This document shows, piece by piece, positions 1-3,244 of a stretch of 7,793 nucleotides of DNA. The stretch lies in IMG/VR virus record IMGVR_UViG_2744054872_000002. One strand, 5' to 3'. A program made the translations under genes and the position numbers. The stretch comes from a virus. Taxonomy: Duplodnaviria > Heunggongvirae > Uroviricota > Caudoviricetes. Each line of letters begins with the position of its first letter. The stretch's first letter is position 1. The notes beneath the pieces were generated by a model. It worked only from the letters and a program-made list of their open reading frames with translations, made no database searches and was not told the DNA's origin.

Positions 1-469
1 TTAATACCCCAGCGCGATAAAACAACAATCTTCGGTGCCCTCTCCGGATGGCGACCAGTTCTGAATACTGATATGCGTTCTGCTGGCAATACGCACATTC
101 ATCGCGGCATTGTAGCCAGATGTTCCACGGTTTCCGGTCGCAAATAAGCCTGCATAGGGAAAAGCAAATGGTAAGGCATATCCAGCATCAGCTCCCTTTT
201 GTGTTGCCACCGTTCCCCACTGCAACATAAGTTTCACCGGGTTTCCTGTCGTCGCAATGCATGGAATGTAGATGTAGCCATTCCCTGACATCATTGACCT
301 GAAGCTGTCTAAATCCAGTAACTTCGAGGCATTATCTGCTCCAACATCTCGTGTTGCGGCGGTCCCTAACTGGAGCGCATTTCGGAAGGCTGATACATCA
401 GAAATATCAGCTCCATTAGCCGATTTCTGCATAGCTCCGGAGGCTTTATTTATCGTTTCTCCCAAACCA
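1..469 (-). CDS. Tail-fibre variable C-terminal (receptor-binding) cassette inside an invertible segment; silent orientation, lacks the constant N-terminal part (outside window)
   Basis: The minus-strand frame is open from 510 to a TAA stop at 3-1. The translation carries a QWG...LPFAFP motif and a Gly/Ala/Thr-rich C-terminus, typical of Mu S / P1 S / lambda Stf-type fibre tips. It begins at the crossover site next to the invertase gene and reads away from it, as Mu S'v does relative to gixR and gin. The ATG at 510 is probably incidental, since the real protein would be made only after fusion to the constant fibre part. Confidence 0.6.
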
Positions 470-482
470 ACGTTTAAGAAAA
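457..482. other. gix/hix-like 26-bp recombination crossover site (imperfect 12-bp inverted half-sites around a central AA)
   Basis: Sequence TTCTCCCAAACC-AA-CGTTTAAGAAAA. The left half-site matches the remembered Mu gix half-site TTATCCAAAACC at 10 of 12 positions, and the right half-site (reverse complement TTTTCTTAAACG) at 8 of 12. It has the AAACC-NN-GGTTT-like core and lies about 56-80 bp upstream of the invertase start codon. Confidence 0.6.
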
Positions 483-537
483 TGCAGAGGTAACAGCTAA
501 CTGGCATCATCCCCGGTTTTTATTCAGGGGGATAATC

Positions 538-1131
538 ATGCTTATTGGCTATGTACGCGTGTCAACAAATGACCAGAACACGGAATTGCAGCGTAACGCG
601 CTGGAGTGCGCAGGATGTGAGCTGATTTTTGAGGATAAAATCAGCGGCACTAAGTCCGACCGACCGGGACTGAAAAAACTGCTCAGGACATTATCGGAGG
701 GGGATACACTGGTGGTCTGGAAGCTGGACAGGCTGGGGCGTAGTATGCGGCATCTGGTCATTCTGGTTGAGGAACTGCGCGAACGCGGCGTTAATTTTCG
801 CAGCCTGACGGATGCTATTGATACCAGCACGCCGATGGGGCGTTTTTTCTTTCATGTGATGGGTGCCCTGGCTGAAATGGAACGAGAACTCATTGTCGAG
901 CGGACACGCGCCGGGCTGGAAGCGGCCAGAGCTAAAGGTCGTATTGGTGGCAGACGTCCGAAGCTCACCGCGAGTGAGTGGGAACAGGCAGGACGGTTGC
1001 TGGCTGCGGGTGAATCACGTCAACGCGTGGCGCTGATTTTTGATATTGGCCTGTCCACGCTCTATAAAAAATTCCCCTCATCAGCGACAAAGAATAAATT
1101 GTGTCATCCCTTAGCCAACCGGGACAAATAG
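538..1131 (+). CDS. Site-specific DNA invertase, small serine recombinase (Gin/Hin/Pin/Cin family)
   Basis: 197 aa. N-terminus MLIGYVRVSTNDQ carries the catalytic Ser in the YxRVST motif. Also present are GDTLVVWKLDRLGRS, MGRFFFHVMGALAEMERELI and a C-terminal GRIGGR plus helix-turn-helix region, nearly collinear with Gin, Hin and Pin as I recall them. Shine-Dalgarno AGGGGG lies at 525-530 before the ATG at 538. Confidence 0.93.
   Translation: MLIGYVRVSTNDQNTELQRNALECAGCELIFEDKISGTKSDRPGLKKLLRTLSEGDTLVVWKLDRLGRSMRHLVILVEELRERGVNFRSLTDAIDTSTPMGRFFFHVMGALAEMERELIVERTRAGLEAARAKGRIGGRRPKLTASEWEQAGRLLAAGESRQRVALIFDIGLSTLYKKFPSSATKNKLCHPLANRDK
621..682. promoter_or_regulatory. Candidate Fis-dependent recombinational enhancer within the invertase 5' coding region
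   Basis: A perfect 9-bp inverted repeat GCTGATTTT / AAAATCAGC (621-629 and 637-645) is followed by an A6 tract in GACTGAAAAAACTGC (668-682); both contain G-N13-C 15-mers with AT-rich centres. In Hin, Gin and Cin systems the enhancer lies inside the first ~150 bp of the invertase gene. Exact Fis sites cannot be fixed by eye. Confidence 0.3.
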
Positions 1132-1190
1132 CCTGACATCTCCGGCACAACTGAAAATATCACTCACCCATTAACCACGGAGTTAAACGG

Positions 1191-2381
1191 ATGAGTGACT
1201 ATCATCACGGCGTGCAGGTGCTGGAGATTAACGACGGCACCCGTGTCATTTCCACCGTATCCACTGCCATTGTTGGCATGGTCTGCACGGCCAGCGATGC
1301 GGATGCGGAAACCTTCCCCCTCAATAAACCGGTGCTGATTACCAATGTGCAGAGCGCAATTGCAAAGGCCGGTAAAAAAGGCACGCTGGCGGCGTCGTTG
1401 CAGGCCATCGCCGACCAGTCAAAACCGGTCACCGTTGTTGTGCGCGTGGAGGACGGCACCGGCGACGACGAAGAAACGAAACTCGCGCAGACCGTTTCCA
1501 ATATCATCGGCACCACTGACGAAAACGGTCAGTACACCGGACTGAAAGCCCTGCTGGCGGCGGAGTCGGTAACCGGTGTTAAACCGCGTATTCTTGGTGT
1601 GCCGGGACTGGATACCAAAGAGGTGGCTGTAGCACTGGCATCAGTCTGTCAGAAGCTGCGCGCTTTCGGGTATATCAGCGCATGGGGCTGTAAGACCATT
1701 TCCGAGGTGAAAGCCTACCGCCAGAATTTCAGCCAGCGTGAGCTGATGGTCATCTGGCCGGATTTCCTCGCATGGGATACGGTCACCAGTACCACCGCCA
1801 CCGCGTATGCCACCGCCCGTGCGCTGGGGCTGCGCGCTAAAATCGACCAGGAGCAGGGCTGGCATAAAACGCTGTCCAACGTCGGGGTGAACGGTGTTAC
1901 CGGCATCAGCGCATCTGTATTCTGGGATTTGCAGGAGTCCGGCACCGATGCTGACCTGCTTAACGAGTCAGGCGTCACTACGCTGATTCGTCGCGACGGT
2001 TTCCGCTTCTGGGGTAACCGTACCTGCTCCGATGACCCGCTGTTCCTCTTTGAAAACTACACCCGCACCGCGCAGGTGCTGGCCGACACGATGGCTGAGG
2101 CGCACATGTGGGCGGTGGACAAGCCCATCACTGCAACGCTGATTCGCGACATCGTTGACGGCATCAATGCCAAATTCCGTGAGCTGAAAACAAACGGCTA
2201 TATCGTGGATGCGACCTGCTGGTTTAGCGAAGAATCCAACGATGCGGAAACCCTCAAGGCCGGAAAACTGTATATCGACTACGACTATACACCGGTGCCT
2301 CCTCTCGAAAACCTGACCCTGCGCCAGCGTATTACCGATAAATACCTGGCGAATCTGGTCACCTCGGTTAACAGCAATTAA
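1191..2381 (+). CDS. FI: Contractile tail sheath protein (P2 gpFI-like)
   Basis: 396 aa, the length I recall for P2 FI, with N-terminus MSDYHHGVQVLEINDGTRVISTVSTAIVG. GGAG Shine-Dalgarno lies at 1179-1182 and the gene is first in the FI-FII-E-T-U-D order. Confidence 0.95.
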   Translation: MSDYHHGVQVLEINDGTRVISTVSTAIVGMVCTASDADAETFPLNKPVLITNVQSAIAKAGKKGTLAASLQAIADQSKPVTVVVRVEDGTGDDEETKLAQTVSNIIGTTDENGQYTGLKALLAAESVTGVKPRILGVPGLDTKEVAVALASVCQKLRAFGYISAWGCKTISEVKAYRQNFSQRELMVIWPDFLAWDTVTSTTATAYATARALGLRAKIDQEQGWHKTLSNVGVNGVTGISASVFWDLQESGTDADLLNESGVTTLIRRDGFRFWGNRTCSDDPLFLFENYTRTAQVLADTMAEAHMWAVDKPITATLIRDIVDGINAKFRELKTNGYIVDATCWFSEESNDAETLKAGKLYIDYDYTPVPPLENLTLRQRITDKYLANLVTSVNSN

Positions 2382-2968: not shown

Positions 2969-3244
2969 ATGAACAAAGAAAATGTCATTACCCTGGACAA
3001 TCCGGTCAAACGTGGTGAGCAGGTTATCGAACAGGTCACGCTGATGAAACCCAATGCCGGGACGCTACGCGGTGTCAGTCTGGCTGCGGTTGCAAACTCC
3101 GAAGTCGATGCACTGATTAAGGTGCTGCCGCGCATGACGGCACCGATGCTGACCGAGCAGGAAGTCGCCGCGCTGGAACTGCCTGACCTTGTGGCGCTGG
3201 CCGGTAAGGTGGTCGGTTTTTTGTCGCCGAACTCGGTGCAGTGA
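2969..3244 (+). CDS. E: Tail assembly chaperone gpE (zero-frame product)
   Basis: 91 aa, MNKENVITLDNPVKRGEQ..., ending at TGA 3242-3244. It sits between the tube and tape-measure genes as in P2. Confidence 0.9.
   Translation: MNKENVITLDNPVKRGEQVIEQVTLMKPNAGTLRGVSLAAVANSEVDALIKVLPRMTAPMLTEQEVAALELPDLVALAGKVVGFLSPNSVQ

Follow-up and report, generated by a model that had tools for sequence, protein, structure and literature searches.

In P2, the position directly upstream of the tail sheath gene FI holds the non-essential gene fun(Z), and the question raised by the DNA analyzed here is what occupies that position in a related prophage, where an antisense reading frame resembling a tail-fibre tip is followed by a recombinase gene. 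We analyzed a stretch of 7,793 bp in which both lie at the left end (hereafter, the window), together with the chromosomal DNA around it. With considerable confidence, we interpret the window as starting within a Pin-type switch, by which site-specific inversion would give a P2-like prophage two alternative tail-fibre tips.

Genomic setting of the invertase gene

The window matched the chromosomes of E. coli GZEC065, SCEC020022, and J-8 at 100% identity. In GZEC065, it makes up the right-hand portion of a P2-like (Peduoviridae) prophage adjoining pflB, and about 19 kb of this locus was scanned (L001, in which position 9001 is window position 1). According to the annotation, the prophage is structurally complete in appearance, from capsid to ogr. 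Open reading frames, Pfam matches, and annotation gave the gene order 3' of the switch as FI, FII, E/E', T (tape measure), U, D, and ogr, i.e., the P2 order, and the slippery sequence of the E/E' -1 frameshift (GGTTTTTTG, window 3215–3223) is identical to that of P2. The features of the window discussed below are as follows.

1–468, minus strand: silent alternative tail-fibre tip cassette (155 aa), a variable C-terminal part of the fibre gene H
457–482, no strand: right 26-bp crossover site (pix/gix-like), TTCTCCCAAACC-AA-CGTTTAAGAAAA, with the core dinucleotide at 469–470
483–537, plus strand: 55-bp leader with the ribosome-binding site GGGGGA, between the crossover site and the invertase start (upstream alignments)
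538–1131, plus strand: DNA invertase gene (197 aa), outside the invertible segment (Pfam, PHROG, and Gin structures)
556–627, no strand: putative Fis-dependent recombinational enhancer in the 5' end of the invertase gene (homology)
1095–1190, plus strand: P2 pF late-promoter region (alignment with P2 and pro483; P2 annotation)
1191–2381, plus strand: FI, tail sheath (Pfam Phage_sheath domains; L001 and P2 annotation)
2394–2912: FII, tube (open reading frame list, Pfam, and L001 annotation)

In this prophage the invertase module lies directly upstream of FI, in the place that fun(Z) takes in P2. A sequence-only reading of this DNA had placed it at the Z/fun position, and rightly so, because the P2 annotation has fun(Z) antisense and immediately upstream of the pF promoter and FI. 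Alignment with P2 located a homologue of the Ogr activator-binding site at approximately 1095–1123 and the expected transcription start at approximately 1165–1167. From approximately 1099 onward the window is pF promoter DNA, which marks the right edge of the inserted module.

The same reading had assigned the product of 538–1131 to the Gin/Hin/Pin family of invertases, and this was borne out by matches to Pfam Resolvase (E = 2e-52) and HTH_7 (E = 1e-12), to PHROG 125 "DNA invertase" (E = 6e-101), and to the Mu Gin structures 3uj3 and 4m6f (E = 1.6e-94, no gaps over residues 1–182). Pairwise identities were 98% to the invertase of pro483, 86.7% to PinE of e14, 80.1% to Mu Gin, and 79.8% to P1 Cin. 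The nucleophile motif MLIGYVRVSTNDQ, with Ser9 intact, is identical to that in the Gin structures, and the helix-turn-helix (HTH) domain is also intact. By these sequence comparisons the protein belongs to the Pin/Gin/Cin/Hin subfamily of small serine recombinases, and the closest known system is e14 Pin (87% identity, near-identical site), not Gin. In NCBIfam, the invertase had sub-threshold matches only, and the fibre parts had no match. We also considered reading the recombinase as a resolvase or transposon enzyme, and rejected this given the 80–87% identity to Gin, Pin, and Cin and the Gin E value above; the gamma-delta and Tn3 resolvase structures matched far more weakly (E = 6e-33 and 2e-27, respectively).

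The last ~11 codons of the invertase reading frame and its stop (1129–1131) are read from pF promoter DNA, which has replaced the native C-terminal tail and accounts for a length of 197 aa against the 184–193 aa of Pin, Cin, and Gin. The replacement is probably harmless, because the Pfam HTH domain extends no further than residue 181. Upstream, alignments showed conservation of the leader across e14, pro483, and Klebsiella P2-like phages; it contains a weak hairpin and T-run at 499–518. A consensus scan for a sigma-70 promoter upstream of the invertase gene found none.

Changes at positions 106 and 114 render Gin and Hin independent of Fis. The window invertase has H106, as in 4m6f, and M114, where both 3uj3 and 4m6f have valine; with these two residues unmutated, a Fis-dependent enzyme would be expected. 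Two Fis-consensus cores, 48 bp apart, were found in the 5' end of the gene, at 560–574 (TGTCAACAAATGACC) and 608–622 (GCGCAGGATGTGAGC). The degenerate consensus used, KNNYRNNWNNYRNNM, that of the cin enhancer literature, is loose and has about one chance match per 128 nt. It matched at the same gene positions (nucleotides 23–37 and 71–85) in the window, Mu gin, P1 cin, and a Klebsiella P2-like phage, and both positions are inside the Cin enhancer that the P1 record annotates at nucleotides 19–90 of cin. Among residues conserved in all four genes, identical codons were used at 5 of 19 inside the region and at 7 of 74 outside it, an excess that is suggestive in a region where coding constraint also explains conservation. 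The center of the proximal core is ~98 bp from the center of the crossover site, and the native enhancer-site spacing of Hin is 99 bp (PMC3798978). On the strength of this homology, we regard the region as a putative enhancer.

Crossover sites and fibre tips

The right crossover site has one mismatch to the palindromic consensus derived from hix and gix sites (TTNTCNNAAACCNNGGTTTNNGANAA), and 200 shuffles of the window or of the 19-kb locus produced no match to this consensus. The site differs from its e14 counterpart beside pinE (TTCTCCCAAACCAACGTTTATGAAAA) by a single nucleotide, and it is 55 bp from the invertase gene, compared with 54 bp in Mu. Homology to other invertase-bearing P2-like phages, as detected by megablast, starts at 454–471, i.e., at this site. 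The gix-like element proposed at 457–482 from the letters of the window is thus well founded.

An inverted partner had been predicted to the left, beyond the window, and it was found in GZEC065, whose DNA is 100% identical to the window. The left site, TTCTCACATACC-TT-CAATTGGGAGAA (L001 7923–7948), is inside the fibre gene H, 1,534 bp left of the right site and 1,052–1,077 bp upstream of window position 1, and has four mismatches to the consensus. A scan of the 19 kb of L001 at ≤5 mismatches detected only these two sites, at 7923 (core TT) and 9457 (core AA), with ~0.04 sites expected by chance at up to four mismatches. The core dinucleotides TT and AA are reverse complements, so the sites are in inverted orientation, as inversion requires. 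In either orientation of the segment, one of the two sites is degenerate, with four mismatches to the consensus, and three of the four adjoin the core, within the half-site that moves together with the QLGE tip. The sites were first spotted by eye and then confirmed by the consensus scan; a generic inverted-repeat search of L001 6500–10200 did not report them, because they share too few contiguous bases. A third site, at the internal LQLGxAAxRDVG repeat of the window cassette, was considered and rejected, as there is no site-like DNA there.

The genes to the left of the window in GZEC065 complete the module.

L001 7109–8371: fibre gene H (420 aa), with N-terminal Phage_tail_fib and C-terminal Gp53-like_C domains
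L001 8374–8607: 77-aa open reading frame behind the expressed H tip
L001 8588–8998, antisense: Caudo_TAP tail-fibre assembly gene (136 aa; Caudo_TAP E = 1.7e-29)

These are followed by the antisense cassette (window 1–468), the right site, and the invertase gene. The constant 5' part of a fibre gene, which had been expected to the left, is thus present in H. In the state seen in the window, this constant part (276 codons) is joined to a 144-aa tip and followed by the 77-aa reading frame, and the 155-aa tip of the window and the 136-aa Caudo_TAP gene are antisense and silent.

The protein encoded by the window cassette begins GLGETINK and ends FIALGY at its stop codon. It matched Pfam Gp53-like_C (E = 1.2e-8) and the tail-fibre PHROGs 1396, 4209, and 295, in agreement with the earlier description of the 1–469 product as the C-terminal domain of a tail fibre. 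The cassette has neither a start codon nor a promoter of its own, and its expression depends on an inversion that joins it to the constant H part. Its usable coding part begins at 468, directly after the core at 469–470, and the ATG at 510 from which RefSeq annotates a protein of 169 aa, beyond the site, is very likely an artefact of open reading frame calling. The antisense tip cassette of the sequence-only reading is therefore present, with the start of its usable coding part corrected to 468.

Both tips have gp53-like C-terminal domains. They are distantly related, with one significant local match, the motif QLG(E/T)AA(K/T)RDVG (E = 7e-5), and they likely recognise different receptors. A pair of opposed tail-fibre assembly genes had been anticipated between the two sites. 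Opposed accessory genes are indeed there; one is the Caudo_TAP gene and the other is the 77-aa reading frame, which follows the expressed tip in place of a recognisable assembly protein. The 77-aa product is a member of a conserved family, with no match in Pfam and no sequence match in the PDB. A Foldseek search of its confident structural model (pLDDT 89.9) against the PDB gave no match, and comparison with BFVD gave weak matches only, some of them named tail fibre assembly protein.

Arrangements of the module among E. coli genomes

When the 1,536 bp including both cores were inverted in silico, H stayed in frame as a product of 431 aa, in which GLLTYL of the constant part is joined to GLGETINK and the C-terminal part, ending FIALGY, is the window cassette. 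The flipped H would precede the tail-fibre assembly gene. The left junction predicted for this state (the constant part of H with the window cassette) was contiguous in 75 complete E. coli genomes, with an identity of 97.6–98.9% among the best 30 of the 75 matches, and the flipped right junction was found in 16 records.

Both flipped junctions were present in strain SCPM-O-B-12142 (L003). Its annotation lists an intact H of 431 aa and, after a gap of 2 bp, the 136-aa assembly gene; the 77-aa reading frame and the other tip follow in antisense, and then the invertase gene. BLAST comparison of the GZEC065 locus with this strain gave three blocks: a collinear left flank (97.7% identity), a collinear right flank (95.7%), and a middle block (L001 7935–9473) that is inverted in SCPM-O-B-12142 with 99.6% identity over 1,539 bp. 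Adjacent blocks overlap nowhere but in the two sites, and the right breakpoint, L001 9454–9473, corresponds to window 454–473. The hybrid sites of SCPM-O-B-12142, TTCTCGCATACC-TT-GGTTTGGGAGAA and TTCTCCCAATTG-AA-CGTTTATGAAAA, are those predicted for a reciprocal exchange at the cores. At some point in its history, the module underwent an inversion between these two sites. As the flanks are 2–4% diverged, what the comparison reveals is a past inversion and not an ongoing one. The two orientations that the sequence-only reading led us to look for were thus encountered between genomes, in the pair GZEC065 and SCPM-O-B-12142 and in the 75 genomes with the flipped left junction.

GZEC065, SCEC020022, and J-8, which are identical to the window, share one orientation. 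The native arrangement of this tip pair was found in only five complete E. coli genomes, and the same pair in the flipped state only in SCPM-O-B-12142 among the candidates. The partner of the window cassette varies from one complete E. coli genome to another, an instance of the modular exchange of fibre cassettes that is familiar from such sites; in strain 10, for example, the window tip is expressed and the silent partner is a different one. We also sought the same prophage lineage in both orientations as a sign of recent switching, and the candidates were uninformative, EC3 being a deleted remnant. Decayed derivatives of the module were detected in AR_0137 (truncated invertase), EC3 (deletion), and phi458 (IS1 insertion).

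Proposed switch, alternative readings, and known relatives

The course proposed for the switch is that long established for Hin and Gin. The invertase would recognise the two 26-bp sites at window 457–482 and L001 7923–7948, and host Fis would bind the enhancer at window 556–627, following the Hin/Gin paradigm. Two site-bound invertase dimers would then assemble with the Fis-bound enhancer on supercoiled DNA, Ser9 would cleave at the 2-bp cores, and a 180-degree rotation of subunits followed by religation would leave the 1,536-bp segment flipped (see PMC3798978 for the underlying mechanism). In the flipped state, H would be joined in frame to the window tip with the assembly gene behind it, and the other pair would be silent. 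Low expression of the invertase would make any ongoing switching in this strain slow and stochastic. With alternative tips fused to H, a lysogen population would release particles of two receptor-binding types, which may serve as bet-hedging in host range.

The same parts could alternatively be those of an inversion switch that no longer flips at a meaningful rate in this prophage, with the cassette permanently silent and the invertase kept by chance or for action in trans. The left site is indeed four mismatches from the consensus, but exchange between exactly these two sites has occurred, as the comparison of GZEC065 with SCPM-O-B-12142 revealed. The C-terminus of the invertase was altered by fusion to pF DNA, but this alteration lies past residue 181, the last of the HTH domain, and the invertase reading frame is intact, as are Ser9, the HTH domain, and the two Fis-consensus cores. 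The lack of a recognisable invertase promoter in the sigma-70 consensus scan also fits a loss of activity, although the Pin family is generally weakly expressed. The single orientation of the three window-identical genomes and the decayed derivatives in AR_0137, EC3, and phi458 are further points for a frozen module; the silent cassette and the assembly gene, on the other hand, have remained intact reading frames, 99.6% identical to the copy that is in the expressed position in SCPM-O-B-12142. Taken together, we regard it as unlikely that the module is frozen.

The main selected effect of the switch might otherwise be on the lysogen and not on the host range of the phage, either through action of the invertase in trans on e14 or other prophages, or through a fused fibre that alters susceptibility to phages. 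With a right site 1 nt from that of e14 and an invertase 87% identical to PinE, cross-action is plausible, and an invertase-matching region is present in 2,981 of 5,426 complete E. coli genomes (median 1 and up to 6 places per genome). There is also a published precedent, as PinQ-driven inversion of the e14 P segment is reported to yield StfE2 and to block T2 adsorption (PMC12529663). Against an effect on the lysogen, the prophage is structurally complete in appearance from capsid to ogr, and the sequence gives no sign of a defence function. In P2, H is a late gene under Ogr-dependent control and, with the pF site conserved here, fibre fusions should therefore not be expressed in an uninduced lysogen. 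We consider a switch that mainly serves the host extremely improbable. A bolder proposal, in which the switch or a trans-acting invertase alters the phage susceptibility of the lysogen and the 77-aa product represents a new minimal class of fibre chaperone, appears very unlikely.

The Pin-type switch that we favor belongs to a class of system that is well understood and has been described before. Its closest relative is the P segment of e14 in E. coli K-12, which has the most similar invertase (PinE, 86.7%), a near-identical site, and a conserved leader between the site and the ATG. The layout is also alike, i.e., the constant part of a fibre, a tip with tfa, an antisense tfa with a tip, and the invertase. 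However, e14 is a defective lambdoid element in which stfE is annotated as a pseudogene, whereas the window belongs to an apparently complete P2-like prophage, its tips are gp53-like, and one of its accessory genes is the 77-aa reading frame and not Tfa.

The Mu G segment with Gin and the P1 C segment with Cin share with the window invertases of 80% identity, 26-bp sites with a 2-bp core, and Fis cores at the same codons. The frame of the fusion at the site is likewise comparable (NLGLQETVN in Mu and YLGLGETIN in the window). In Mu and the window the site is upstream of the invertase at 54–55 bp, whereas the cix site of P1 is downstream of cin. The Mu G (~3 kb) and P1 C (~4.2 kb) segments contain long Sv/Sv' parts and 175-aa U/U' proteins, compared with a 1.5-kb segment and tips of 144 and 155 aa here; the core is AA in the window and GA in the Mu gix site, and the Mu and P1 backbones are unrelated to the window prophage.

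Among P2-like elements, pro483 carries a DNA invertase annotation in this slot; the protein is 98% identical, and from the site onward its DNA shares 96.5% identity with the window. The homology stops at the site, and the tip cassettes differ. Fels-2 (Fin/STM2702) and two P2-like prophages of EPEC E2348/69 also have an invertase in the slot between the fibre genes and FI, again with different cassettes. In the latter two prophages, Goldberg et al. detected coexisting orientations in clonal cultures by sequencing (PMC4272514). An inversion of the Fels-2 tail fibre between LT2 and LT7 has been attributed to a pin homologue (PMC7953296), and a 2024 preprint describes the P2 Z/fun hotspot as often containing a DNA invertase with inversion of adjacent genes (bioRxiv 10.1101/2024.10.15.618418). 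These three reports agree with the earlier remark that the class of system is known. They also qualify the description of the locus as a Mu G/P1 C architecture grafted onto a P2-like tail operon: the architecture is as described, and the graft is not new.

The tip pair, comprising the QLGE tip with the 77-aa reading frame and the GLGE tip with the 136-aa Tfa, has not been characterised previously. The significance of the locus is small beyond correct annotation. It explains why RefSeq lists a "gp53-like domain-containing protein" of 169 aa that runs antisense to the tail operon from a start that is very likely artefactual. Between assemblies of strains carrying this prophage, a 1.5-kb inversion is predicted that is programmed and does not reflect an assembly error.

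The same two tips (94–95% amino acid identity) are also found, in convergent orientation, in the side-tail-fibre region of the lambdoid phi458, together with a Pin-like invertase. On this lambdoid backbone, with IS1 inserted into one of the cassettes and a truncated invertase, the switch is dead. The two tips are interchangeable receptor-binding parts common to P2-like and lambdoid phages, and could be used in the engineering of P2-type phages and tailocins.

Movement of the invertible module between phages

The tip cassettes of the switch were also found outside the P2-like prophages. In the lambdoid Escherichia phage phi458 (L007 3700-6000), both are present on the side-tail-fibre gene with 94-95% amino-acid identity, and this region also encodes an ORF of the 77-aa type and a 136-aa tail-fibre assembly protein (Tfa). 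Given that the same cassettes and accessory ORFs occur in this lambdoid phage, we conclude that the whole invertible module moves between unrelated phage backbones. A comparison of the GZEC065 and SCPM-O-B-12142 loci (L001 and L003) revealed higher identity in the invertible segment (99.6%) than in the flanks (97.7% and 95.7%); that the segment is closer than either flank suggests that P2-like prophages have exchanged it as a unit.

Decayed forms of the same switch were detected at three loci. In AR_0137, the invertase is reduced to a 108-bp pseudogene and the expressed state is locked with the window's tip; in EC3, a deletion extends from the assembly gene into the tail sheath gene FI; and phi458 has a truncated invertase and an IS1 within its window-type cassette.

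Two records of strain NDM2, NZ_CP083887.1 (43,140 bp, called a plasmid) and NZ_CP083886.1 (the chromosome), both hold the first 1,190 bp of the window with 97.4-97.6% identity. Excision or circularisation of the P2-like prophage may have yielded a copy that the assembly captured as the 43-kb "plasmid".

The small ORF behind the expressed tip

L001 8374-8607, left of the window and within the invertible segment: 77-aa ORF, directly 3' of the tip expressed at present

This ORF occupies the slot where a tail-fibre assembly gene is expected. Members of its family, from E. coli, Citrobacter, Enterobacter and Phytobacter, retain a length of 77-80 aa with identity down to 59%. Searches of Pfam and of PDB sequences returned no match, and no structural match to the AF2 model of the product (pLDDT 89.9) was found in the PDB. 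The sole hints of a relation to Tfa, both weak, are a match of the N-terminal 31 aa to PHROG 188 (E 9e-5) and a BFVD match to a LIMEzero "tail fiber assembly protein" (E 0.059).

The two ends of the invertase gene

Window 499-518, plus strand: hairpin followed by TTTATT, just 5' of the invertase RBS

The sequence of this hairpin is also kept in e14, pro483 and Klebsiella phages, and the structure might block late-operon transcripts crossing the invertible segment from entering the invertase gene. At the other end, the invertase ORF takes its final ~11 codons and its stop codon from DNA of the P2 pF late promoter (window 1095-1131), a stretch that contains the Ogr activator-binding site homologue, and the gene therefore physically overlaps the promoter of the F operon.

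Sequence motifs in the window

Window 277-372, minus strand: motif repeat QLGTAATRDVGADN, cassette residues 33-64, ~32 residues in

Within the window's cassette, QLGTAATRDVGADN repeats the motif QLGEAAKRDVGTGN of the crossover region of the tail-fibre gene H. The repeat resembles the remnant of an earlier junction; no crossover-site-like DNA is present at 277-372. Farther downstream, the slippery sequence of the P2 E/E' programmed -1 frameshift, GGTTTTTTG, is exactly conserved at window 3215-3223, and the E' frame at this locus runs on to 3396.
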